64,000 nt of DNA from Spirochaetia bacterium (GCA_963675665.1 OY776510.1:3456001-3520000); one strand, 5' to 3'; counted from the first letter of the stretch, positions 3,899 to 64,000 are shown. Made by a program: numbers and translations. The notes: generated by a model from the letters alone, not told the origin.

Positions 3899-4780
3899 AT
3901 GGATAACATGACTATTTTCCTGCTGGAAAAAGGACGGTACAGAGGGGCAATACTGGATGCAACCGTTATGGTGCAGAAAATGAGAGATTCACACAATACA
4001 GGCATACTGGAAACTTTTGCTCTCGGCGAGACCTATATTGCAGCAGGTCTTCTTACTACCATGCTGAAAGGAAATGACCGACTAGGAATTGTTTTTGAAT
4101 GCGGAGGCCCGATAAAGGGGATAAATGTAGAGGTTACAGCTGCAGGTCATGTTCGGGGGTTTCTTAAAAACAATCCGTTTCCGCTTGAAAAAATTCCGGA
4201 CAGTATGGATTTGTCAATGTTGTTCGGACCCGGATTTTTGTCAGTTATAAAATACCCGGAAGACAGCAAACAGCCTTTTAGCGGGCAGGTAATGATTCAA
4301 TACGGCAGCATAGCAAAAGATCTTGCTTATTATTATACAACTTCTGAAAACCTGCCGACTGCTTTTAATCTTAGTGTCAAATTTAACCGGGACGGCAGCC
4401 TGCTGGGCGCCGGAGGAGTTTTTATACAGAAAATGCCGGATGAAGAGTCTGCTGAGGATAATTCTGAAGCGGAAAGAATCCAGGATGCGCTGGTCGGAAT
4501 GACTTCAATAGGTTTAAGTCTTTCTGATGGTAAAACACTTCAGGAAATCATCAGCAATTCCTTCGGTGATTTTTTTCCGAATGTAATCGGCACGCGGAAT
4601 ATTGAATTTAAATGCAGCTGTAATCGTGAATTGTTCAGTAATTATCTTAACGGTCTTAAGGAAGAAGATAAAAAAGAAATATTTGAAAACGGACCGTACC
4701 CGGTTACTACAGTTTGCCATAACTGTAATACCTCTTATGAATTCAACAAGCATGAACTGAAGAAAATTTTTAATTACTGA
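3899..4780 (+). CDS. hslO: Hsp33 redox-regulated chaperone
   Basis: GPIKG, AGGVFIQKMP, C-terminal CSC...CHNC zinc centre. Confidence 0.9.
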   Translation: MDNMTIFLLEKGRYRGAILDATVMVQKMRDSHNTGILETFALGETYIAAGLLTTMLKGNDRLGIVFECGGPIKGINVEVTAAGHVRGFLKNNPFPLEKIPDSMDLSMLFGPGFLSVIKYPEDSKQPFSGQVMIQYGSIAKDLAYYYTTSENLPTAFNLSVKFNRDGSLLGAGGVFIQKMPDEESAEDNSEAERIQDALVGMTSIGLSLSDGKTLQEIISNSFGDFFPNVIGTRNIEFKCSCNRELFSNYLNGLKEEDKKEIFENGPYPVTTVCHNCNTSYEFNKHELKKIFNY

Positions 4781-4785
4781 AAAAA

Positions 4786-4817
4786 GGGAGTAAACCTTTA
4801 ACTTGTGGGTTACTCCC
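4786..4817. terminator. Probable bidirectional terminator hairpin
   Basis: gggagtaa...ttactccc inverted repeat between convergent genes. Confidence 0.55.
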
Positions 4818-4826
4818 CGTAATTAT

Positions 4827-5162
4827 TTACTTTTCGGTTTCGTTTTCGGAAGCATTGATCTGTTTTTTTAGTGAATTCAGTCTATTTTCAAGGTAATCTG
4901 CCTCTTCCCGAAGCATTTGATTATATTCTTCGTCTGTAACAGCGCCGGCATTTACACCGTAACCGGGATGAAAACCCTGTCTGAAGCCGCCTCTTAAAAA
5001 TCCTCTTCCTGCAAAACCTGCACCTGCCCCGAATCCGCCGCCCCTGCGTCCGAATCCGCTCCTGTTATACGAGCCCGGCATATTATTACCATTACAATAG
5101 CCGGCGCCCCTGCCTGTTCTTGGTCCCATTCCGTTCGGTCCCGTTCCGTTTCCCATTGGCAT
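4827..5162 (-). CDS. DUF5320-like Gly/Arg-rich protein with C-terminal coiled coil
   Basis: MPxGNGTGPxGMGPRTGRGAGYC N-terminus, RG-rich middle, LREEADYLENRL coil. Confidence 0.85.
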   Translation of the reverse strand: MPMGNGTGPNGMGPRTGRGAGYCNGNNMPGSYNRSGFGRRGGGFGAGAGFAGRGFLRGGFRQGFHPGYGVNAGAVTDEEYNQMLREEADYLENRLNSLKKQINASENETEK

Positions 5163-5227
5163 ATGATACCTCCATGTGTATCTGTGAGGCTGATAATCGA
5201 TTTTTGGATACAGCCTCTGTTCCGTTA

Positions 5228-5566
5228 TTAAAAAGCTGTCAGCTTTCCTTCCCTATACGAGTCATAAGCTTCTTTCAAGCTCATATTCTGTGCACCTGTA
5301 AAAATTTTTAAATTTGCTTTCTGCAAAACAGCAGCGGCATTTCCGCCTGGCCCGTTTCCGGTAATTAGAACATCAGGTTCAAGATCAAAAAGTTTTTTGG
5401 CTGTCTGAGGTCCGGCGCCGTGGGCCGCATTCTGGATGTCAAGATTGTTAACCGTTTTTATTTCTTCGCTGTCTTCATCATACATGAAAAGAAAATCGGC
5501 TCTTCCGAACCTCGGGTCTATTTCGGCATCCCAGTTTTCGCCTTTTGCAGTTAATACAATTTTCAT
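5228..5566 (-). CDS. NifB/NifX-family Fe-Mo cluster-binding domain protein
   Basis: DPRFGRA, HGAG, ITGNGPG motifs. Confidence 0.88.
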   Translation of the reverse strand: MKIVLTAKGENWDAEIDPRFGRADFLFMYDEDSEEIKTVNNLDIQNAAHGAGPQTAKKLFDLEPDVLITGNGPGGNAAAVLQKANLKIFTGAQNMSLKEAYDSYREGKLTAF

Positions 5567-7334: not shown

Positions 7335-7786
7335 TACCTTCGGCCTCCGTGATACCGGTTGCAGCATCTGCCGTGACCATAACCGCCGGCAACGTCTATA
7401 AGATTTTTGGATCCGCATGCCGGACATTCTGTGTAAATCTTGTTGAAATCAGTTCTGAACATATGCTCGCAACTATTGCATTTGATAATATTTCCACGAA
7501 AATGGATATTTCCGCCGTCGATTTTCAGTTCGGCTCCGTCAATTATAAACTCAGCTACTTTACGCCTTGCTTTTTCAATCAGGCGTGTGAAAGTTGATCT
7601 GGAAATTTCCATCATCCGGGCCGCTTCGGCATGATCCAGGCCTGAATAGTCGGCAAGCCGAACAGCTTCAAACTCGTCAAGACTTAAAGTAATTGTCTTA
7701 AGATTGGTTCTTGCCAAACCGGTCGGTTTGAATGAATTAAAAAGAGGAGGTGAATTAACAATTCTTTCCTTTTCAGGTCTGGGCAT
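7334..7786 (-). CDS. DUF134 HTH DNA-binding protein with C-terminal zinc ribbon
   Basis: MPRP, LDEFEAVRLAD, MEISRSTF, CxxC...CPACGS. Confidence 0.88.
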   Translation of the reverse strand: MPRPEKERIVNSPPLFNSFKPTGLARTNLKTITLSLDEFEAVRLADYSGLDHAEAARMMEISRSTFTRLIEKARRKVAEFIIDGAELKIDGGNIHFRGNIIKCNSCEHMFRTDFNKIYTECPACGSKNLIDVAGGYGHGRCCNRYHGGRR

Positions 7787-53898: not shown

Positions 53899-55032
53899 TT
53901 ATGCCATTACATTTTCAAGCTGTTTCAGCTTTTGTATTACAGGAATATGTTGTGGACATGCTTCCTCGCACTGCCCGCATTCTATACAGTTTGAGGCCTT
54001 TTTGGAATCTTCAAAATAGTTCTTATAACTTACTTTGAACTGATCAACAGAATTATAGACAGAAGTATTATTAAGAAAAGTAAGGTTTGCAGGAATATCA
54101 ACTCCGGAAGGACAGGGCATACAGTATTTGCAATTTGTGCACGGTGCAATAATACGTTCTTCGTACATTTTGCGTACATTTGAGATAATTTTATGCTCGT
54201 TGTCGCTTAACCCGCCGGCATCGGCTTTTTCAGCTGATGCAATATTCTCTATTACCTGATGCATATCGCTCATACCGCTTAATACGGTGTTTACTTTTTC
54301 ATTGTCCCAGACAAAACGCAAAGCAATATCTGCAGGGGAACTTGAGTTACCGGCCTTTTGCCATTCATCATTAATATCATCGGGAATATTTTTAAGGAAA
54401 CTGCCTCCTCGAAGCGGTTCCATTATGACTATACCAAGATTACGATCGGCTGCATATTCAAGCCCTTCCAGCCCGGCCTGATACTCAAGATCCATAAAAT
54501 TATACTGTATCTGACAGAAATCCCAGTTGTAACTATCAACAATCTCTTTGAAAACTGGCAAATCATCGTGAAATGAAAAACCTATATACTTTATCTTCCC
54601 CGATTCAAGAGCTTTTTCTATAAAATCAAACAATTCTGCTTTAACAACTTGCGCCCATGTAGCAGCACCAAGCGAATGAATCAGATAAAAATCGATATAC
54701 TCAGTTTTAAGTTTTTTAAGCTGATTATCGAGATAATAATCCATATCTTCTCTTTTCTTTATTAGCCATGCAGGAAGTTTTGTAGCAAGTTTTACCTTAT
54801 TGCGATAACCGTCAGACAAAGCCTTTCCGGTAATAAGTTCACTCTGACCGCCATGATAAGGCCATGCTGTGTCTATATAGTTTACACCGGAATCTATTGC
54901 ATAACGGATCATCTTAATACTTTCAGCCTCGTCAACTGTTTTATCGGAACCGGAAACGAGAGGAAGACGCATGCACCCAAAACCCAAAACAGAAACCATT
55001 TCACCAGTTTTACCAAATTTCCTATATTTCAT
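53899..55032 (-). CDS. Aldo/keto reductase with C-terminal Fe-S domain
   Basis: LGFGCMRLP, YIDTAWPY, IMEPLRGG, CTNCKYCMPCP, CIECGQCEEACP. Confidence 0.92.
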   Translation of the reverse strand: MKYRKFGKTGEMVSVLGFGCMRLPLVSGSDKTVDEAESIKMIRYAIDSGVNYIDTAWPYHGGQSELITGKALSDGYRNKVKLATKLPAWLIKKREDMDYYLDNQLKKLKTEYIDFYLIHSLGAATWAQVVKAELFDFIEKALESGKIKYIGFSFHDDLPVFKEIVDSYNWDFCQIQYNFMDLEYQAGLEGLEYAADRNLGIVIMEPLRGGSFLKNIPDDINDEWQKAGNSSSPADIALRFVWDNEKVNTVLSGMSDMHQVIENIASAEKADAGGLSDNEHKIISNVRKMYEERIIAPCTNCKYCMPCPSGVDIPANLTFLNNTSVYNSVDQFKVSYKNYFEDSKKASNCIECGQCEEACPQHIPVIQKLKQLENVMA

Positions 55033-55157
55033 AAAAATATTATAGCAGGATGAATATTCAGATACCAGTCTGTTATCATCAAACACCTGAATAAAACAGA
55101 TATAGTTATACTACGTATATACAACGCCTATAAATAGTCAGTATTACTCTTTTCTAT

Positions 55158-55193
55158 TTGACAAAAAATAAACATGAGTACATAATTTTGTCA
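55158..55193 (+). promoter_or_regulatory. Putative recombinase promoter with overlapping inverted repeat
   Basis: TTGACA(55158-63)-17 bp-CATAAT(55181-86); tgacaaaa(55159-66)/ttttgtca(55186-93). Confidence 0.55.
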
Positions 55194-55200
55194 TTAAAAG

Positions 55201-56265
55201 ATGAATATAAAAATAACTTTAAAAAATGATGATTTAATTGAACTCACCTGTCCATATAATACAGAATTAATATCTGTAGTTAAAAAAATACCGGGAAGAA
55301 GGTGGCATCCGGACAGGAAGCTTTGGACATATCCTAATAAAGATAAAAATACCCAATACCTGCTTGAATATTTATATAAAACAGGCTCTTCTTATTACGA
55401 CAAACAGAAAAATCTGCAAAAGAACACTAATATAATTACACCTCTTGAAAAAACTGTAAGATATTTGAGACTGAAAGAATACAGCCCCAAAACAATCTAC
55501 ACCTATAAAAAACATATAAACTGGTTTTTCCGGAGAACCGGTTTGGAGCCGAAGGATGTCCGTACCGAAGATATAATTTTATATCTTGAAAAAATCAAAA
55601 ATGTTGCCGGATGCTCCAGAACTTATGCTGTTCAATGCATAAGCGCTCTGAAATGTTTTTACAGCCGGGGATTTGATTCGTGGTTCAATCCGGCTGACAA
55701 TATTCCGCTGCCTAAGAAAGATCATAAGTTTCCGGATATTCTTTCAAGAAAAGAAATCTCGGATATACTGGAAATAACCGCTAATATTAAACACAAGTTT
55801 TTAATATTATTGATCTATTCCGCCGGCCTGAGGGTAAGCGAAGCTGTCAATTTAAAAATAAACGATCTGGATTTTGACAGAAAAATGATTCATATCAGAT
55901 CAGGAAAAGGTAAAAAAGACAGGTATGTAATGTTATCGGAAAAAGCTGTAAAACTATATTTAGATTACAATAAGCAGGTAATGTTACAAAACTGGCTCTT
56001 CCCAGGTCAGGATTATAACTCTCATTTAAGCATACGATCAGCACAATCAGTATTTATCAGAGCAACTGAAAAAACTGAAATACAAAAAAAAGTCAGCATA
56101 CATTCATTACGTCATGCATTTGCTACACATCTACTTGAAGACGGTGTAGATTTAAGATACATACAGGAGCTTCTGGGGCATAAAAGCAGTAAAACAACAG
56201 AAATATATACCCATGTAACAAAAGTAAGTATAAACCGCCTGAAAAGCCCTATAGACAGATGGTAA
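55201..56265 (+). CDS. Tyrosine recombinase heading the cassette array; HARP-like N-terminus, SAM-like domain, no IntI-specific insertion
   Basis: GLRVSE, GKGKKDR, HSLRH, LLGH, TEIYTH catalytic set intact; PYNTELISVVKKIPGRRWHPDRKLW N-terminus. Confidence 0.9.
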   Translation: MNIKITLKNDDLIELTCPYNTELISVVKKIPGRRWHPDRKLWTYPNKDKNTQYLLEYLYKTGSSYYDKQKNLQKNTNIITPLEKTVRYLRLKEYSPKTIYTYKKHINWFFRRTGLEPKDVRTEDIILYLEKIKNVAGCSRTYAVQCISALKCFYSRGFDSWFNPADNIPLPKKDHKFPDILSRKEISDILEITANIKHKFLILLIYSAGLRVSEAVNLKINDLDFDRKMIHIRSGKGKKDRYVMLSEKAVKLYLDYNKQVMLQNWLFPGQDYNSHLSIRSAQSVFIRATEKTEIQKKVSIHSLRHAFATHLLEDGVDLRYIQELLGHKSSKTTEIYTHVTKVSINRLKSPIDRW

Positions 56266-56280
56266 CCAAAATTTTGAAGG

Positions 56281-56321
56281 GTTATATGCATGTTATACAT
56301 GAAGATAAATTGAAGTTGAGG
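56281..56321 (+). other. Putative attI site
   Basis: AGATAAA-TTGAA-GTTGAGG (56303-56321) has attI L-5bp-R spacing; GTTATAT/GTTATAC direct repeats at 56281/56292; gttgaggcga..tagc mirrors the end of cassette 1 (gctacatcgcctaac). Confidence 0.55.
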
Positions 56322-56357
56322 CGAAATAGCGAAATAAATAAAAATTGAGTTGGTTTA

Positions 56358-56675
56358 ATGAAAAAATATACAGGACATATTCCACCTTGTGGGATCTTTT
56401 GTGGAAGCTGTCCAAAATATAAAATTGATTGTGAAGGAGCAGAACATCATTGTAGTAGAGAAAATTGGGAAATGATTTATACATGTTGTGTTGAAAAAAA
56501 GAAATATAAATTTTGTTATGAATGTTATGACTATCCATGTTCATATTTCCACAATTTTTCAAAATCATGGCTTACTATTACAGACTCTAAAGATAATATT
56601 ATGGACAATCAAGTATTTATTAAAAATGATGGTCCTGAATATTTTTTGAAGAAAATGAATGAGAGGCTCAAATAA
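56358..56675 (+). CDS. Cassette 1: DUF3795-like Cys-rich protein
   Basis: PCGIFCGSCP, IYTCC..K...FCYEC..YPC. Confidence 0.78.
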   Translation: MKKYTGHIPPCGIFCGSCPKYKIDCEGAEHHCSRENWEMIYTCCVEKKKYKFCYECYDYPCSYFHNFSKSWLTITDSKDNIMDNQVFIKNDGPEYFLKKMNERLK

Positions 56676-56688
56676 TATATGCTACATC

Positions 56689-56786
56689 GCCTAACAAGCG
56701 AATATGAGGCTACGGTGACAAGCACCTTCGCCCAAATAAACCTCCCATTCGGTCGGTTTACTTCTCATATTCGCAGGACGTTAGAT
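56689..56786 (+). repeat. attC-like site 1 (98 bp)
   Basis: GCCTAAC-aa-gcgaatatgag...ctcatattcgc-aggac-GTTAGAT. Confidence 0.85.
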
Positions 56787-56856
56787 TGCAATTTCTGTCC
56801 TGGTTGGGATTATTTAAGGAAGAGCCCGCCTTCCGTGGCGGGCATGGAGATAAGAA

Positions 56857-57921
56857 ATGAATAATAAAGTATTATATTATCCAAGTATAGAATTTTATGA
56901 TGTTAGTTGGGTTAAAGCATCTCTATGTATTTGGGACAAAGTTTATAGAATTGTGCCTTCAACTTATATTCCCAATGATTGTTTAGAAATAGAAACATTT
57001 ATTAATCATGGACTAGTTGATAATATTAGTATTGAACAAAATGATTTATCAGAAACAGCTGATAATTTTATCGATTTTATTGAAAAAATACCAGGATTAC
57101 CTGCTGGCATTGAAGGATATGAAAAGATCAATTTGCACAAAGAAAAAGTAGATGATCGTATTCTGCCCATATTAGAAGCGATATCAGACAAATTTGAATT
57201 AGAATCATGGATACCTCTATCAAGACCGATAGTAAACGCTTACATGCTTTTTTTTGCAGAAACTATTTCAAGAAGAAGAAAAATGCCAAAGATTACTGAT
57301 AATGTCGACATGTATACAATAATGCATTATTTTATGGCAGATGGTAATATTGATGAATCAATAGGTTCACATGAACATAAAGAATATAGCATTAATCTTG
57401 TATTAGAAAATATTATACCAGCAGATATTAATACCGTATCACCTGAGATTATACTTAATTTCAGAGAAGCAACAGAAGATATTAGAGACACTTTTAGAAA
57501 CTATGTATATAATTTGATTGATGAAATAAAGTCTATTGAAAGTGAATCTTATGCAAAAGAAATAATAACTGATAGTATTTCTGATATTTCTAAAAATAAT
57601 TCATCGCAAAAAAGAGTTATTAAAGAATTAGGTATGAATTTCACTACATCATTTCTTTCAATAGGTATACCTACTACAATTTCGGCAATTGCACTTTTTT
57701 CAAATACAAATAATATATTTTCCATAAACGAAATAATGGGTTCAGTTTTCATTGGAGCAGTTGCGTCTATTGCAGATACAGTCCGCTCAAGAAGAAAAGA
57801 TTGGAGTTCAGAGGAATCACTTTTTATGCATGAATTAGATAGAAGATTTGATACTTATAGGAATTTCAGGCCAACAACTAATCGACATTTTAATATTTTA
57901 GAAGAATATATTAATGATTAA
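56857..57921 (+). CDS. Cassette 2 gene 1: DUF6236-like protein of unknown function
   Basis: LYYPSI...WVKASLCIWDKVYRIVP N-terminus; hydrophobic segments near C-terminus. Confidence 0.6.
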   Translation: MNNKVLYYPSIEFYDVSWVKASLCIWDKVYRIVPSTYIPNDCLEIETFINHGLVDNISIEQNDLSETADNFIDFIEKIPGLPAGIEGYEKINLHKEKVDDRILPILEAISDKFELESWIPLSRPIVNAYMLFFAETISRRRKMPKITDNVDMYTIMHYFMADGNIDESIGSHEHKEYSINLVLENIIPADINTVSPEIILNFREATEDIRDTFRNYVYNLIDEIKSIESESYAKEIITDSISDISKNNSSQKRVIKELGMNFTTSFLSIGIPTTISAIALFSNTNNIFSINEIMGSVFIGAVASIADTVRSRRKDWSSEESLFMHELDRRFDTYRNFRPTTNRHFNILEEYIND

Positions 57922-57952
57922 TAAAGTAAATAAAACTTAAAAGGAGCATAGC

Positions 57953-59515
57953 ATGTCAGAAAAACTAATTCTAGATGCATTAATTACAAGAGAAGATTTT
58001 GAAATCTCTGACGAATTAGATATACCCACAACAGATATGAAAGATACTTTGTCAATTCAAGATTTAGAATATAATTCTTTTTTCTATCGTGCATTAAGAA
58101 AGCCTGATTTTCAAAGAGAGACTAGTGATTGGACTATTGAAAAAACATTTCAATTTATTGAAAGTTTTATTAATGGAGATTTAATACCTGCAGTTATTTT
58201 GTGGAAAAATAGTTCAGGTTTAATATTTGTAATAGATGGTTCTCATCGAATCAGCGCTTTATCTTCATGGATAAATAACGACTATGGGGATGGTCGTTAT
58301 TCAATAGAATTTTATAATAATCAAATTTCAAACCAACAGAAAAAACAAGCCCAAACAGCAAGAACAATAATTGATGCTACAATAGGTTCATATGATTCAT
58401 ATAAAAATATTGATACAAATCTAAAAGAAGAAAATTTAACGAAATATAAAAAGGCGATGCAGTTAGGTTCTACAGCTATTCAAATTCAATGGGTAAAAGG
58501 TGATTCTAAAAAAGCAGAGGAGTCATTTTTTAAGATAAATGAAAAAGCTTCTCCAATTGATAATACTGAAAAGAAGATTATTAAAAATAGAAACAAACCA
58601 ATTGGGATAGCTGCAAGAGCAATCATGAGAAGTGGTAGTGGATATAGATATTGGTCCAAATTTGATAATAAAAGAAAAAATGAAGTTGAGCAGCTTGCAA
58701 AAGACATAAATGATATGCTTTTCTTACCAGAATATACAACCCCTATTAAAAGTTTAGATTTACCGATTGGCGGAAAGATCTTATCGAATAAAGGTTTAGC
58801 ACTAGTTCATGATACAATAATGATATGTAATAATTTAAATGAAAAAGAATTAGAGAGAATAGTGGATGACAATGATGGGATAAATACTGTTAAATACTTA
58901 AAACGAACAAAAAGACTTTTATTGAGGATTAATAGTCAACATCCAGGCTCTTTAGGATTACATCCAGTTATATATTTTTATTCAATACGTGGTGTTCATA
59001 AAGTAGCCTCATATTATGGAATACTTGATTTTATTAATTATATAGAAGAAACGAATAGGTACAACGATTTTATAGAAATACGCGAGAAGTTTGAAAGAAT
59101 CTTATTAGATTATGAATTCCTGATACAACAAATAGTACGTCATGATAGGCAATCTATAAATGGATATAAAAATATTAAGGAATATTATTCTTTAATTATG
59201 GACTATTTATTACAAGGTAAAGAGATTGAGGAAGTAATTAAAATGATTCTTGATACTAAGAAGTTTTCATATCTTTCTATTGCAATTACTAAAATGGAAG
59301 AAACTAAAGCTAAAAAATTCTCAAGAGATAAAAAATCGATAATTTTTATCAAGGAAGGTTTAAAAACAATTCCTAAATGTGGTATTTGTGGCGGGGCGTT
59401 ACATTCAAAATCGATATCAATTGATCATATAGAAAGAAAACAGGATGGTGGAATTTCAATGATAGATAATGGCCAATTATCACATCCATATTGTAATACA
59501 ACATATAAAAATTGA
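57953..59515 (+). CDS. Cassette 2 gene 2: DUF262 (GmrSD/ParB-like) plus C-terminal HNH nuclease
   Basis: PDFQRE..W, IPAVILW, VIDGSHR, FFKIN; CGICG...IDHIERKQDGG...NGQLSHPYCN. Confidence 0.82.
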   Translation: MSEKLILDALITREDFEISDELDIPTTDMKDTLSIQDLEYNSFFYRALRKPDFQRETSDWTIEKTFQFIESFINGDLIPAVILWKNSSGLIFVIDGSHRISALSSWINNDYGDGRYSIEFYNNQISNQQKKQAQTARTIIDATIGSYDSYKNIDTNLKEENLTKYKKAMQLGSTAIQIQWVKGDSKKAEESFFKINEKASPIDNTEKKIIKNRNKPIGIAARAIMRSGSGYRYWSKFDNKRKNEVEQLAKDINDMLFLPEYTTPIKSLDLPIGGKILSNKGLALVHDTIMICNNLNEKELERIVDDNDGINTVKYLKRTKRLLLRINSQHPGSLGLHPVIYFYSIRGVHKVASYYGILDFINYIEETNRYNDFIEIREKFERILLDYEFLIQQIVRHDRQSINGYKNIKEYYSLIMDYLLQGKEIEEVIKMILDTKKFSYLSIAITKMEETKAKKFSRDKKSIIFIKEGLKTIPKCGICGGALHSKSISIDHIERKQDGGISMIDNGQLSHPYCNTTYKN

Positions 59516-59658
59516 TAATTAATAAAAAATGTATTGGAATCATGAATTATCTACATGATTAATTTGAAAAGGAGTTAAGCATATAGAAAATGATTATAGG
59601 GTCAAATACATCCATGTATTTGACAATTAAGTATTAAAGCAACCATGAAAGAAACGGC

Positions 59659-59806
59659 ATCTAACAAGCAAATATGTAGCTCCGGCCATTCGGCCTGCGC
59701 CCAAATTGAAGCTAACGGAGAAGCGGAGCAGGACAGTCGGGTTTGCTCATTGACAAAACACTCCTTTGGCGGCGCTTCAACTTTACATATTCGCGGAACG
59801 TTATGT
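59659..59806 (+). repeat. attC-like site 2 (148 bp)
   Basis: ATCTAAC-aa-gcaaatatgta...tacatattcgc-ggaac-GTTATGT; internal ttgaagc/gcttcaa pairing. Confidence 0.85.
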
Positions 59807-59955
59807 GCAATTACCCCGCCCCTTTTTTGGGAGAAGAGATTGTATATAGGCAAACTGGCATCCGTGCCAGTTTGGAAATGTATAAACACACATCGCATCG
59901 CATAAAAAGGTGAGATTATAGAATTAAAATTTATTAGTATGCATAACAAGGAAGC

Positions 59956-60837
59956 ATGATAATGGAATGGTCTGAAAGAATGAATATGGCAATCGATTAT
60001 ATTGAAGATAATATTAAAAATGAGATACTGATTTCAGAAGTAGCAAATATAGCCAATTGTTCATCATTTCATTTTCAGCGAATGTTTTATGCAATCATTG
60101 GGATTACGCCTGCTGAATATATCAGACGACGAAGATTGACTTTAGCAGCCTCTGATCTCGCTGCTGGGAATGAAAAAGTCATTGATATTGCTCTGAAATA
60201 TGGTTATGAATCACCAAATGCGTTTACTAGAGCATTCCGGAATATGCATGGTATTAATCCACGAGAAGTGCGCAGCTCAGAGGTTAAATTATCGGCATAT
60301 AATCGTGTTTCTTTTCATATCGAAATCAAAGGAGGAAATGATATGGATTATAAAATAGTCGAAAAACCGTCTTTTGAATTGGTAGGGAAGAGTAAAAACT
60401 TTACACATGAAAACTTTTTTAAAGAAGGCCCTAAATTCTGGAAAGAATACGTATGTACAGATGAATACCAAGAGCTTTGGAATTTGACAAATGGTAGATG
60501 GGGAGAGGTGACTGATTCCCCTCTGATGTCTGTCTATTTGCCTAGTGAAAAAAATGATGAATCATTTATTGATATTCTTGGTGTTGAAAAGTCAGATAGT
60601 TTTAATAATCATAAATTTGAACTATTTCAGATACCAGCTGCTACCTATGCAGAATTTAATTGTACTTATCAGACTTCTGCAAAAATGAATAAATTTATTT
60701 ACGGTGAATGGCTTCCTTCAACCGGTTATGAAAGGGATACTCAAAAAGCTGATATTGCAGCTTATTTCCCAGTAGCTTTTATGTCAACAAAAGGGATGGG
60801 GGTACGATGGTGGATACCAGTGGTTAAGAGAAAGTGA
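59956..60837 (+). CDS. Cassette 3: AraC-family regulator with GyrI-like effector domain
   Basis: AIDYIEDN, FHFQRMF, YIRRRRLTLAA, YGYESPNAFTRAF; C-terminal YAEF..EWLP. Confidence 0.92.
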   Translation: MIMEWSERMNMAIDYIEDNIKNEILISEVANIANCSSFHFQRMFYAIIGITPAEYIRRRRLTLAASDLAAGNEKVIDIALKYGYESPNAFTRAFRNMHGINPREVRSSEVKLSAYNRVSFHIEIKGGNDMDYKIVEKPSFELVGKSKNFTHENFFKEGPKFWKEYVCTDEYQELWNLTNGRWGEVTDSPLMSVYLPSEKNDESFIDILGVEKSDSFNNHKFELFQIPAATYAEFNCTYQTSAKMNKFIYGEWLPSTGYERDTQKADIAAYFPVAFMSTKGMGVRWWIPVVKRK

Positions 60838-60909
60838 AAGAGATTTCAAGCAAAACATCGTGTTTTGCTTGAAGAATTCTCTTAAGAAAGACCGGGGCGG
60901 GGAAACTGC

Positions 60910-61001
60910 ATCTAACAAGGGTTACACGCTCCGGCCATTCGGCCTGCGGGCTGCGCCACATTCGGCTGCGCCGAACGTCGTGTAACCCTGGAACGTTATA
61001 C
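60910..61001 (+). repeat. attC-like site 3 (92 bp)
   Basis: ATCTAAC-aa-gggttacacg...cgtgtaaccc-tggaac-GTTATAC. Confidence 0.88.
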
Positions 61002-61079
61002 AAAATGTTCCCGCTAAGAGGAAGACGCCCGGACCTCCGGCCGACGGGCTAAAAGAGAGTTTAAGATTAAGGAATCAAG

Positions 61080-61859
61080 ATGGAAAAAGAGTTTACCGGA
61101 AATGAAATTGGATTAAATGGAGAAGCTCAAATAAAGATAGCTATCAAAACTATCTCTGATCTTGGTGGGAAAGCAGAAATGAAGGATTTATATTCTGCTT
61201 TAGAGAATGAAATGCGAGGAAAGAAACTCTCCAATCAAGGAAAGGCAAGTTTCAGATTTTTTGTGAATAAGGTCGCTGTAAAAGCAGGATTGATTTATCC
61301 GTATGACAAAAATAATCCGGGGTGGATGTTGACTCCGGCTGGTAAAGAATATCTGAAGAATGAAGAGATTAATGAAATAACAGTAAATACGGATACAAAT
61401 GAAGAAGAGGTAACTTTATCTAATTCGGCAAGAGGTTTAGCTTTTGAATTATACGCTCATGATTTTCTAAAGACATTATATCCAAGTTTTGTGTGGCATC
61501 ATCAGGGGCTTTATAAAACAACTGAAAGAGGTTTGGATTTTATAGGAGATAAACTTGGGGATCAAAATTCAGATGTTCGAACCATTGGTGTTCAGGTTAA
61601 GTTTCATAAAGAGAAAAATTCGCCAACTCAGATTGAATGGTTAAAATTTCTATCTGGTTGTTTTGCGCGCAGAGTAGATTTAGCAATATTTATCACAACA
61701 GGTAGATTGTCGAGTGCTCAATATCGAGAGGCGAGGGAATCAAATGTTATAGTTATTCAAGGAAAGGATGAGATAACAAGGATTGCAAAACAGAATAATT
61801 TAAAGAAGTTTGATTTATTTGGAAGTGAAGAGGAAGGAGAGGCTTCAGAAGAAGGATGA
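61080..61859 (+). CDS. Cassette 4: Mrr-like restriction endonuclease with N-terminal winged helix
   Basis: LGGKA...GWMLTPAGKEYL; FE..., ERGLD, VQVK, IFITTG. Confidence 0.8.
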   Translation: MEKEFTGNEIGLNGEAQIKIAIKTISDLGGKAEMKDLYSALENEMRGKKLSNQGKASFRFFVNKVAVKAGLIYPYDKNNPGWMLTPAGKEYLKNEEINEITVNTDTNEEEVTLSNSARGLAFELYAHDFLKTLYPSFVWHHQGLYKTTERGLDFIGDKLGDQNSDVRTIGVQVKFHKEKNSPTQIEWLKFLSGCFARRVDLAIFITTGRLSSAQYREARESNVIVIQGKDEITRIAKQNNLKKFDLFGSEEEGEASEEG

Positions 61860-61921
61860 AGAGTTAAGATGTTCAAGCCTTGACTCCGCCGTGCGGCTTG
61901 AACGAAGAGCGGGAACACTTC

Positions 61922-62013
61922 GTATAACAAGGGTTACACGCTCCGGCAATTCGGCCTGCGGGCTGCGCCACATTCGGTTGCGCCGAACGTCGTGTAACCC
62001 TGGAACGTTAGCT
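61922..62013 (+). repeat. attC-like site 4 (92 bp, near-identical to site 3)
   Basis: GTATAAC-aa-gggttacacg...cgtgtaaccc-tggaac-GTTAGCT. Confidence 0.88.
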
Positions 62014-62105
62014 GAAATGCCCCGCTAAGAGGAGAACGCCCGGACCTCCGGCCGACGGGCTAAACTGAATAGGAAATTAATAATAAATTAAAATATGGAG
62101 TTAGT

Positions 62106-62954
62106 ATGAAGAAGTTATCACTAGTATTTGTATTTCTAATAGCTGTGAGTAGTTTATATGCAGAGGATATAGCTTTAATTGAAGATAATGTGCTTGATTT
62201 ATTTAATAGTTACAATCCTCAATATAAAACAATTGGTCCAAAAATCTTGAATATCCCTGAAGGGCAAATTGATTTTTACAAAATGAAAATAGATACTGAT
62301 GAAAGTGATCTAAAATTCTTAGTAATTAAAGATAAGTACATTATAGGGGTCTTGCAAAATGTTAATGGTGAAGATCAACTTTTAATTGATGCAAATGGTG
62401 ATAATTTATTAGATTATTATTCTCAAGAATTAACAATACCTTATTGGGTTGTAGCATCAGAGTGTAATAATCACAGTAATAATGAATATAATTTGGATAT
62501 TTATTTTGATGAAGCTATTGAGATTTTTAATGGAGAGGTGAACCCATATTCATCCGGTTTGCATTATCAGTTTACGCAAAAATTATTAGTTTCAGTTTCA
62601 GCACCGGAAACTCCTAATCGAGATATAATTTACGCTTTATATGATTATTACAATCATGGCGACCAATATCCATGGGTTGCTTTACAAATAATTAATTATA
62701 TAAGCAAGACTACTTACGATAGATATAAAAAGGATAATCTATTATTTTACTTACATACTATGGAATCCTTAATTAATTTTGGATATTCAGATAGAGCGAT
62801 ACCATTGATGGAAGAGTTAGTAAAGAAATACCCAGAATTTATTCCAGGGTTAGTGTATAGATGGCAATTAGAAAATGATGCTTCGAAAAAGGAGAAATAT
62901 TATAAAGATCTAAAAACCAATTATCCAAATCATTGGATAGTGAAATTAATTTAA
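62106..62954 (+). CDS. Cassette 5: secreted protein of unknown function, possible Ca-binding loop and TPR-like C-terminus
   Basis: Signal peptide MKKLSLVFVFLIAVSSLYA; DANGDNLLD; helical C-terminus. Confidence 0.7.
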   Translation: MKKLSLVFVFLIAVSSLYAEDIALIEDNVLDLFNSYNPQYKTIGPKILNIPEGQIDFYKMKIDTDESDLKFLVIKDKYIIGVLQNVNGEDQLLIDANGDNLLDYYSQELTIPYWVVASECNNHSNNEYNLDIYFDEAIEIFNGEVNPYSSGLHYQFTQKLLVSVSAPETPNRDIIYALYDYYNHGDQYPWVALQIINYISKTTYDRYKKDNLLFYLHTMESLINFGYSDRAIPLMEELVKKYPEFIPGLVYRWQLENDASKKEKYYKDLKTNYPNHWIVKLI

Positions 62955-63034
62955 TGAAATATTATAGATTTGAAAACTTTGGTAGCCAGTCCTTGACTCC
63001 GTCGCACGGACTGGTTTAAGAGCGGGGACACTTC

Positions 63035-63342
63035 AGCTAACAAGGGAATATAAGCAGCGCCCATTCGGGCTTGGCCTTCGGCACATTTTTATTTTTCTGA
63101 ACATAGGCTTTATCATCGGCATTTAACACATGAAATGCAGTAGTCAACACCTTTGACACGGTTCTGGCGGAGACATTCGCTGATCGCTCATTCCAGAACC
63201 GCGCCAACCCTCGAAGACTCGGGACGGTTTCGCTACTGATTTCGTCGTTAAATGCACGGGATTTTTCAGTTTCGGGAAAATGATGGGTGTGATAGAATCA
63301 ATGAGAAAAATAAAAACGTCTTATATTCCCGGGGCGTTATGC
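63035..63342 (+). repeat. attC-like site 5, unusually long (308 bp)
   Basis: AGCTAAC-aa-gggaatataag...cttatattccc-ggggc-GTTATGC; inner pairing acatttttatttttct / agaaaaataaaaacgt. Confidence 0.75.
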
Positions 63343-63457
63343 GACATTCTTGGAGGAAGAAGATAGAAACATTGTTTGGGATGATTTTGATAGTTTTTAG
63401 CATTTTACTCATTAAAAATTATTTTATTTCATATGGAAGGGCTATAAATAAATTCCG

Positions 63458-63466
63458 TGATATAAT
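63458..63466 (+). promoter_or_regulatory. Extended -10 promoter candidate inside cassette 6
   Basis: TG-A-TATAAT about 110 bp upstream of the Rhs-core ORF. Confidence 0.4.
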
Positions 63467-63576
63467 GTTATTTACAGTTTTAAATGCTGTAATTGAATTC
63501 TCAAGCAAGATCAACCAACTTGTTTTTAGGAACTTTACGCAGAAATTTAAGATTGAATTAAAAATAAAGGACGAAC

Positions 63577-64000
63577 ATGAATTCTACAGGCCAATATTAC
63601 TACAATGCCAGATGGTATGACCTAAATCTGGGTAGGTTTACCACAGAAGACCCGATAAGCGACGGCCTAAACTGGTACGCTTACGCTAATAATAATCCGC
63701 TGAGGTTTGTTGATCCGACCGGGTTAATAGATGTTGAATCTGATATAGTTGAAACGGAAACATACGTCGATGTTGATACTGATTCTCTCATGACTGGTGA
63801 TCCTATGGATATCTTTGATGATCCAGAAGTTGCAAAAGCTGATACTTTAGCTCAATTAGAAGATGTAGTAGATGAAACTGTAGAAATGATTTCCTTTACT
63901 ACCACTTTGGGTGGACTTTTGCCAGATGAAGAAGTTTCAACCACATTATTTTTTATTGGTGTAGGGACCGACCTTTATTCTACCCTTGTCTCTGAGGATA
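63577..64000 (+). CDS. Cassette 6: orphan Rhs repeat-associated core plus variable C-terminal domain (3'-truncated by window edge), not in ORF track
   Basis: MNSTGQYYYNARWYDLNLGRFTTEDPISDGLNWYAYANNNPLRFVDPTGL-IDVESD...; AAAGGA upstream; no stop before 64000. Confidence 0.88.
   Translation, partial: MNSTGQYYYNARWYDLNLGRFTTEDPISDGLNWYAYANNNPLRFVDPTGLIDVESDIVETETYVDVDTDSLMTGDPMDIFDDPEVAKADTLAQLEDVVDETVEMISFTTTLGGLLPDEEVSTTLFFIGVGTDLYSTLVSED

Follow-up and report, generated by a model that had tools for sequence, protein, structure and literature searches.

Cassette ends pair through a long, wobble-marked stem in a spirochaetal attC array adjoining a tyrosine recombinase without the IntI insertion

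This work concerns a cassette array in a 64,000-nucleotide (nt) stretch of DNA from a Spirochaetia bacterium (GCA_963675665.1 OY776510.1:3456001-3520000), hereafter termed the window, in which hairpin sites bounded by ..TAAC and GTTA.. lie directly 3' of a tyrosine recombinase gene (55201-56265, plus strand) and on the same strand as that gene. Cassettes in this array carry ends that are complementary to each other well past the R box of the attC site, and the resulting stem follows a recurrent plan: about ten pairs counted from the G of GTT, a non-Watson-Crick position 11 and then six to ten further, covarying pairs. We interpret the complementary ends as the two halves of an extended R arm belonging to a non-canonical class of attC sites and put the probability of this interpretation at roughly 0.7. 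Anatomy, conservation, covariation and the association with recombinases devoid of the IntI insertion were read directly from the DNA; from these we infer the functional steps proposed below.

An earlier note on this DNA had named eight arms in cassettes 2 to 5 and claimed that, in every cassette, the 5' end is complementary to the 3' end beyond the R box, the sequences differing between cassettes while pairing is kept. All eight arm strings lie exactly where it had placed them and the claim is borne out: when the 5' arm was aligned with the reverse complement of the 3' arm of the same cassette, anchored at the G of GTT and with an R box of 7 nt, complementarity extended over 21-27 columns with 19-22 matches. 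The individual pairings, all on the plus strand, are 22 matches in 27 columns (four mismatches, one gap) for cassette 2 (56780-56806 with 59640-59665), 19/23 for cassette 3 (59800-59822 with 60894-60916), 19/21 for cassette 4 (60995-61015 with 61908-61928), in which both mismatches place a 5'-arm A against G, and 19/21, with one mismatch and one gap, for cassette 5 (62007-62026 with 63021-63041). Scores beyond the R box were 9, 12, 10 and 9 for the own pairs of these four cassettes and 0-8 for the 12 swapped pairs, the two highest of which (7 and 8) join cassettes 4 and 5, whose arms are related. Cassette 6 opens with a 5' arm at 63336-63351 (plus strand) that finds its partner about 770 nt past the window end, pairing at 15 of 16 positions with the sole mismatch (A versus G) at position 11, and the ends of cassette 7 pair at 18 of 19 positions before a short insertion. 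Pairing is weaker and interrupted by one gap in cassette 1, whose plus-strand 5' arm begins about 50 nt past the recombinase stop codon (56315-56331 versus 56676-56695; score 8, with the anchor one base off; AA versus TG at positions 10-11); this end pairing places the likely attI crossover, at G|TT, at position 56315.

A wider set, taken from this genome and four relatives, comprised 51 intervals between consecutive detected sites and contained 43 unique arm pairs. It was obtained with a relaxed site finder, two early attC finders having proved too strict (zero and then three sites). Beyond the R box the median score was 8 for own pairs, 1 for 1806 swapped pairs (99th percentile 9) and 2 for the 46 pairs of neighbouring arms that flank one array site; a score of at least 8 was reached by 24/43 own pairs and by 37/1806 swapped pairs. 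Shuffled pairings had been named in the earlier note as a check that could refute it. None of 2000 shuffles of the 3' arms reached the observed mean own score, a figure that overstates the significance for a reason given below. The arms differ from cassette to cassette while pairing persists, as is apparent from 19 distinct distal-stem haplotypes with covarying pairs.

The stem was tabulated position by position for those 22 of 41 unique cassettes whose ends could be aligned gap-free with no fewer than 14 matches among the first 20 positions. Position 11 is a Watson-Crick pair in 0/22, and its 5'-arm base is A in 22/22; the opposition reads A.C on the top and G.T on the bottom strand in 17/22 and A.A on the top and T.T on the bottom strand in 5/22. 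The selection rule favours matches and therefore cannot have created this mismatch. Positions 12-19 are Watson-Crick in 18-22 of the 22 cassettes, three to four pair types occur at each of positions 13-19, and pairing drops after position 20. Between related arms, 53 differences are compensated and 14 uncompensated. When gapped cases are included, an imperfection at positions 9-12 is found in 34/34 well-paired cassettes of the close relatives and in 17/17 of those from distant loci, while A occupies position 11 in 36/41 cassettes of close relatives and 28/31 of distant loci versus 7/23 in a canonical array of the same genome.

Arm pairing would be kept by selection or by correction inside the folded hairpin. 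As in classical integrons, the proximal ten base pairs would form the R-arm footprint of the recombinase. Lying one helical turn away from the crossover, the invariant non-Watson-Crick position would be tolerable on the bottom strand only and probably marks the strand that is to be folded. The distal stem may then clamp the R box shut whenever the ends of the same cassette meet, and such a clamp could substitute for the contacts with extrahelical bases that are made in classical integrons by the IntI domain missing here. It could alternatively be argued that the arms are a functionless relic, either of a long inverted duplication at cassette birth or of homogenization by mismatch correction in the hairpin. 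A common mode of birth would fit arms that are cassette-specific inside a leader/trailer frame shared by many cassettes, but random decay would not leave position 11 at 0/22 with positions 12-19 still paired in 18-22/22, nor would it preserve the design across phyla or a sharp distal end near position 20, and we regard a relic as very unlikely. Even less probable, to the point of being nearly negligible, is a role of the pairing in RNA, in which the 5' and 3' untranslated ends would stabilize or insulate the cassette transcript. The arms do lie outside open reading frames (ORFs) and on the transcribed strand, in line with such a role, but the transcribed top strand would have A.C at position 11 in 17/22 cassettes, while the wobble pair belongs to the bottom strand; in addition, the arms directly adjoin AAC and GTT, the triplets of DNA recombination sites. 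Rfam offers no match for an RNA either: a scan of 54000-64000 with E up to 1 returned four matches at chance level, none of them at the arms. We also rejected a reading of the arms as ends of a transposon or a miniature inverted-repeat transposable element, as the repeats end at AAC/GTT within hairpin sites, are private to each cassette and have no target duplication that we could see. The words AAGAG/AAGAT occur just outside the stem on the top strand in G000 (the genome of the window) and in the stretches L002-L005, on the 5' side in 16/41, on the 3' side in 10/41 and on both sides in nine cassettes against a background of 0.095; they mark only part of the set and were dismissed as support for a transposon.

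The genome also contains a canonical integron, which we used as a control. This integron spans G000:C1:4418878-4526315, about 1 Mb downstream of the window, and consists of a divergent array with at least 27 sites of about 133 nt over some 105 kb and of an IntI (G000:C1:4525383-4526315) that matches the integron integrase model TIGR02249 over the whole profile with 392 bits, above the cut-off. In a sample of 14 cassettes shorter than 3.5 kb, out of 24 intervals between detected sites, the perfect run at the ends measures 5-10 nt (median 9), with scores beyond the R box of 1-5. For classical cassettes, self-pairing past the 7-nt box to 9-11 consecutive nucleotides is described for most cassettes in Bouvier 2009 (PMC2727003), and the values from the canonical array agree with this printed range; pairing to this extent and the G|TT crossover are thus already in print. 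Since the canonical array of the same host has short pairing, the long stem is a property of the site class in the window array and not of the host. The window array is characterized by ends that pair over at least 15 nt, by a position 11 that is never Watson-Crick in the 22-cassette table and by a recombinase without the IntI insertion. By eye, the two classes may also differ inside the sites, canonical-type attCs having an extra G in the left L arm and the three window sites inspected (attC1, attC3 and attC4) a perfect L stem of 10-11 bp with a one-sided bulge of 4-5 nt beside the R box.

The recombinase encoded at 55201-56265 is co-directional with the array and combines a HARP-like N-terminus with SAM-like and catalytic domains. 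The corresponding Pfam matches are HARP (residues 15-48; 27.5 bits, cut-off 25), Phage_int_SAM_4 and Phage_integrase. Against TIGR02249 it attains 190.8 bits, less than the cut-off of 265, in two stretches that skip profile positions 170-234, and its alignment with VchIntIA (2a3v) leaps from chain residue 183 to 240. Identity with the canonical IntI of the same genome amounts to 32%, and all 46 gap positions fall in the window recombinase. The additional domain specific to IntI is therefore lacking. The best matches are XerA-like (NF040815 with 220 bits; PDB 4a8e and 5hxy). A dif-like double-stranded site composed of two inverted arms of about 11 bp and a spacer of 6-8 bp was not seen by eye, no dedicated search having been run.

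Full-length orthologues of the recombinase with 53-63% identity are present in five genomes of the same family, and an array follows directly in all four relatives with enough flanking DNA (G004, G003, G008 and G010; L003 and L004 were read as reverse complements). A scan for more distant relatives, restricted to one genome per species, gave 584 related stretches. The best 80 of these, which were kept, stem from Bacillota, Bacteroidota, Nitrospirae, Ignavibacteriota, Spirochaetota, candidate phyla and several archaeal assemblies, and ten among the best 80 have at least two site-like matches downstream. The long-stem design was found in Desulfitobacterium (L016), Ignavibacteriota (L047), Spirochaetota (L046), Nitrospirae (L035) and Arundinibacter of the Bacteroidota (L032); it thus recurs in several phyla, beside Xer-like recombinases devoid of the IntI insertion. 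Across the distant loci, 17/31 unique intervals reach the pairing threshold; little or no pairing past 9 nt is seen in L034, L068, L018 and L027, and L026 provides one gapped case.

In the window, sites of the form R''(..AAC)-L''...L'-R'(GTT..) with inner pairing are separated by single ORFs in one orientation, which is the layout of an integron; G|TT marks the left boundary of every cassette and AAC the right one. The array runs beyond the window end to about window coordinate 74000, and at least 14 hairpin sites follow the recombinase gene. Within the window, all on the plus strand, these are attC1 (56689-56786; R'' GCCTAAC to R' GTTAGAT, L-box pairing score 11), attC2 (59659-59806; recovered by the site finder at G000arr 4662-4803, L-box score 8.5), attC3 (60910-61001), attC4 (61922-62013) and the 308-nt attC5 (63035-63342). 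From TAAC to GTTA, attC3 and attC4 are identical except at two positions and diverge immediately outside; a switch of identity at precisely these triplets is predicted by exchange at or next to them. Moreover, the bases opening a cassette are complementary to the R'' of that cassette, which, as judged from sequence, results from exchange at G|TT. What the earlier note had claimed, namely insertion of the units by recombination at GTT, is consequently upheld as far as integron-type units and an exchange at or next to G|TT are concerned, but homology also breaks at TAAC. This is best seen in a cassette of about 400 bp that is present in ten copies in G008 and G010 (L004 1186-18710, read as reverse complement, and L005 11474-12352). 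In one copy, the body is 99-100% identical to those of six others while the attC core differs, the homology breaking 4-5 nt after AAC, and 23/36 pairs among nine copies break just after AAC.

Some sites are composite: a long-stem attC bears a complete canonical-type attC at its tip, the whole forming one long hairpin. In the window this is the case for attC5, which carries a complete canonical-type attC (63121-63253) in its loop; further examples are found at L001 3718-4016, in sites of 317-321 nt in L004 and L005, and at G000:C1:4440257-4440395, the latter inside the canonical array and followed by a leader resembling that of cassette 2. Composite sites may form a bridge for the exchange of cassettes between the two systems.

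The cassettes probably travel as circles closed at G|TT, insertion splitting one folded recombination site. In a circle closed in this way, both arms are part of one folded site. The circularization and folding in silico suggested in the earlier note were carried out with DNA parameters for 46 sites, setting the circle junction, flanked on either side by the arms of one cassette, against that site as it stands in the array. In 35/46 the circle junction was the more stable form (median difference for the bottom strand, -8.8 kcal/mol); in the other 11/46 it was no more stable than the array form, for example where neighbours share arms or the interval is armless. The bottom strand folded more stably than the top strand in 45/46 (median -6.5 kcal/mol). 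In whole single-stranded circles of cassettes 3 to 5, 18-22 of 22 arm nucleotides were paired, contiguously at the 3' arm of the same cassette, the exception being three nucleotides on the bottom strand of cassette 5. The predicted extra long stem thus does form in silico in circle junctions and in these circles. Contrary to what the earlier note had supposed, it is not restricted to them in these folds, since linear single-stranded array segments pair the arms of one cassette across 1-1.3 kb in 5/6 folds: in segments of 1.2-1.5 kb around cassettes 3, 4 and 5, 15-18 of 19 arm nucleotides were self-paired, beating local R-box pairing, and only the bottom strand around cassette 3 lacked this pairing.

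These results bear on two further explanations. According to the first, which takes up the functional reading of the earlier note, the distal stem exists in the circle only, making the attC of a circle a better substrate than those of the array and thereby biasing the system towards integration and array stability. The flanks of one array attC come from different cassettes and pair poorly (median of 2 for neighbours against 8 for own ends), circle junctions gain a median of 8.8 kcal/mol, and whole single-stranded circles keep the stem. According to Grieb 2017 (PMC5737091), SSB, the protein that binds single-stranded DNA, opens attC hairpins stepwise, and a longer hairpin might therefore hold the R box closed for longer. 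The stem nevertheless forms in the linear array in silico as well, neighbours sometimes share arms, and 11/46 junctions are no more stable as a circle. Furthermore, circles arise only by excision from the array, so that too strong a bias would halt the system. We consider this explanation tentative and on the whole doubtful; as models, a stem that favours integration and the opposite, one that favours excision, appear equally plausible. The second explanation has the arms act in the array, where the ends of one cassette would pair across the single-stranded cassette, draw the flanking attC hairpins together and promote excision of the exact unit. The single-stranded state would be provided by the lagging-strand template, conjugation or transformation. 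Pairing of own arms in 5/6 linear folds around cassettes 3, 4 and 5 agrees with this, and a two-arm unit would fit with repeated cassettes losing homology at TAAC as well as at GTTA; yet, with local hairpins and SSB as competitors, arms 1-3 kb apart are unlikely to pair for kinetic reasons, one fold in six (cassette 3, bottom strand) goes without it, and the folds represent a protein-free equilibrium. A role in the array is thus improbable, more so than a stem confined to the circle.

Returning to the extended R arm of a non-canonical attC class, we note several points that weigh against it. The pairing threshold is missed by 7/41 unique cassettes in close relatives and by 14/31 in distant loci, some of these intervals being disrupted by insertion sequences (ISs) or bounded by sites that the crude finder possibly missed or miscalled. 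Cassette families are related and recurrent, and the counts are therefore not independent, which inflates the shuffle figure even though the effect is a large one. Neither SSB nor other proteins enter into the folding energies, which describe equilibrium folds only. Near-identical bodies with different cores and a break at TAAC imply exchange at R'' besides G|TT, or gene conversion of the bodies. The canonical IntI, about 1 Mb away, might act in trans on the window sites. The recombinase of L047 (316 amino acids) has no HARP-like N-terminus and is nevertheless followed by an array with long stems, so HARP is unnecessary for the stem design, and the idea that this domain reads the distal stem is weakened. 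Finally, a recurrent joint from 63331 to 56788 in contigs from public runs (three runs, one organism label) was considered as a trace of a circle and discarded, as it equals the paralogous composite site plus leader at G000 4440257-4440395. Other contig joints came from a metagenome run with a small word share or from repeats, and nothing was drawn from them.

The cargo of the cassettes looks related to defence or regulation. Pfam families assigned between 56857 and 62954 of the window are DUF6236, a GmrSD-N plus HNH protein, an AraC/Cass2 regulator, an Mrr-like endonuclease and a TPR-like secreted protein. Defence-type genes among the cassettes include GmrSD/HNH, Mrr-like and a PIN-type toxin-antitoxin pair, so that the system is also a shuffling route for such genes. 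In cassette 6, a protein gene (window 63577-64000, extending to L001 1514) is followed by one for a small membrane protein, and no Pfam family matched either. The start of the first protein, read by eye from the DNA, resembles what we take to be the end motif of RHS-repeat cores, and the pair may represent an orphan toxin tip with its immunity gene.

Several observations concern the outlying parts of the array and its leaders. An IS with a minus-strand transposase (L001 about 4017-5325) breaks the right half of the composite attC8, and by eye the site is not resumed beyond it. At L001 about 7625-7640, a site reads R' GAT instead of GTT, apparently by loss of TT (by eye), and two cassettes would be fused as a result; the 5' arm behind it is still paired with its own 3' arm at 14/15 positions (by eye). 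A GC-rich leader hairpin of 25 nt (window 61027-61051) lies just past the 5' arm in cassettes 4, 5 and 8 and recurs at about 14 other places in G000, including cassettes of the canonical array. On the minus strand of G000:C1:3906000-3924000, a third small cluster combines long-stem sites with leaders and trailers like those of cassettes 2 and 4, one of its cassettes pairing over 28 columns.

Textbooks present integron recombination as the example of a recombinase guided by the shape of DNA and not by its sequence, and the IntI domain gripping bulged bases is held to define the system. Judged by its footprints, the array described here works with a recombinase that lacks this domain and bears a different structural mark, a private long stem with a fixed wobble. 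It may therefore be viewed as a natural experiment in how a strand can be chosen and a site recognised, with a contrast to a classical integron inside one genome. In practical terms, own-end pairing of at least 15 nt together with A at position 11 offers a simple signature by which orphan attC clusters could be assigned to a type of recombinase. One might go further and propose that stem and wobble act as a licence encoded in the DNA, such that a Xer-type recombinase is efficient only when the ends of the same cassette are paired, and that arrays of this kind make up a second, phylum-spanning class of integrons exchanging cassettes with the classical class via composite sites. We hold this wider proposal to be unlikely. 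If it were true, the DNA fold would by itself determine which strand is used and in which direction the reaction runs, with no part played by the IntI domain, by extrahelical bases or by accessory proteins, and the second class would be one so far filed as orphan attC clusters. In the literature searched in full text, coverage of which leaves aside subscription journals, neither cassette stems that are long and wobble-marked nor attC arrays with recombinases of the XerA or HARP type turned out to be described.

With classical integrons (class 1 cassettes and Vibrio cholerae repeats, with IntI1 and VchIntIA) the window array shares ORFs that mostly lack promoters and all point the same way, hairpin sites with RYYYAAC/GTTRRRY as their bounds, inner L-box pairing, exchange at G|TT and a bottom strand that folds better. 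It departs from them in a pairing of about 16-27 nt, roughly twice the classical extent, with the non-Watson-Crick position 11 and the covarying distal stem behind it; in what, by eye and in the sites inspected, is a perfect L stem of 10-11 bp without a single bulged base and with a one-sided spacer (AA versus NGGAC); and in the neighbouring recombinase, which is devoid of the IntI insertion. With the genome's own canonical integron it has the host, the AAC/GTT bounds and some cassette leader hairpins in common, but that integron possesses an IntI that passes TIGR02249, attCs with an extra G and ends that pair over 5-10 nt. Co-directional intI is known from Treponema (PMC3607928); its chromosomal integrons, compared here by description only, resemble the window array in this respect and are described there as having integron integrases. 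The archaeal integrons reported by Ghaly 2022 (PMC9668308) likewise extend attC arrays beyond the Proteobacteria, many without a recognised IntI, and relatives of the window recombinase were found in archaeal assemblies; the archaeal IntIs, as stated in that paper, carry the IntI-specific additional domain that the window recombinase lacks. Xer/dif systems and XerA provide the best sequence and structure matches. In place of the single dif site of Xer/dif dimer resolution, however, the window recombinase is followed by at least 14 hairpin sites, and its gene heads a cassette array.

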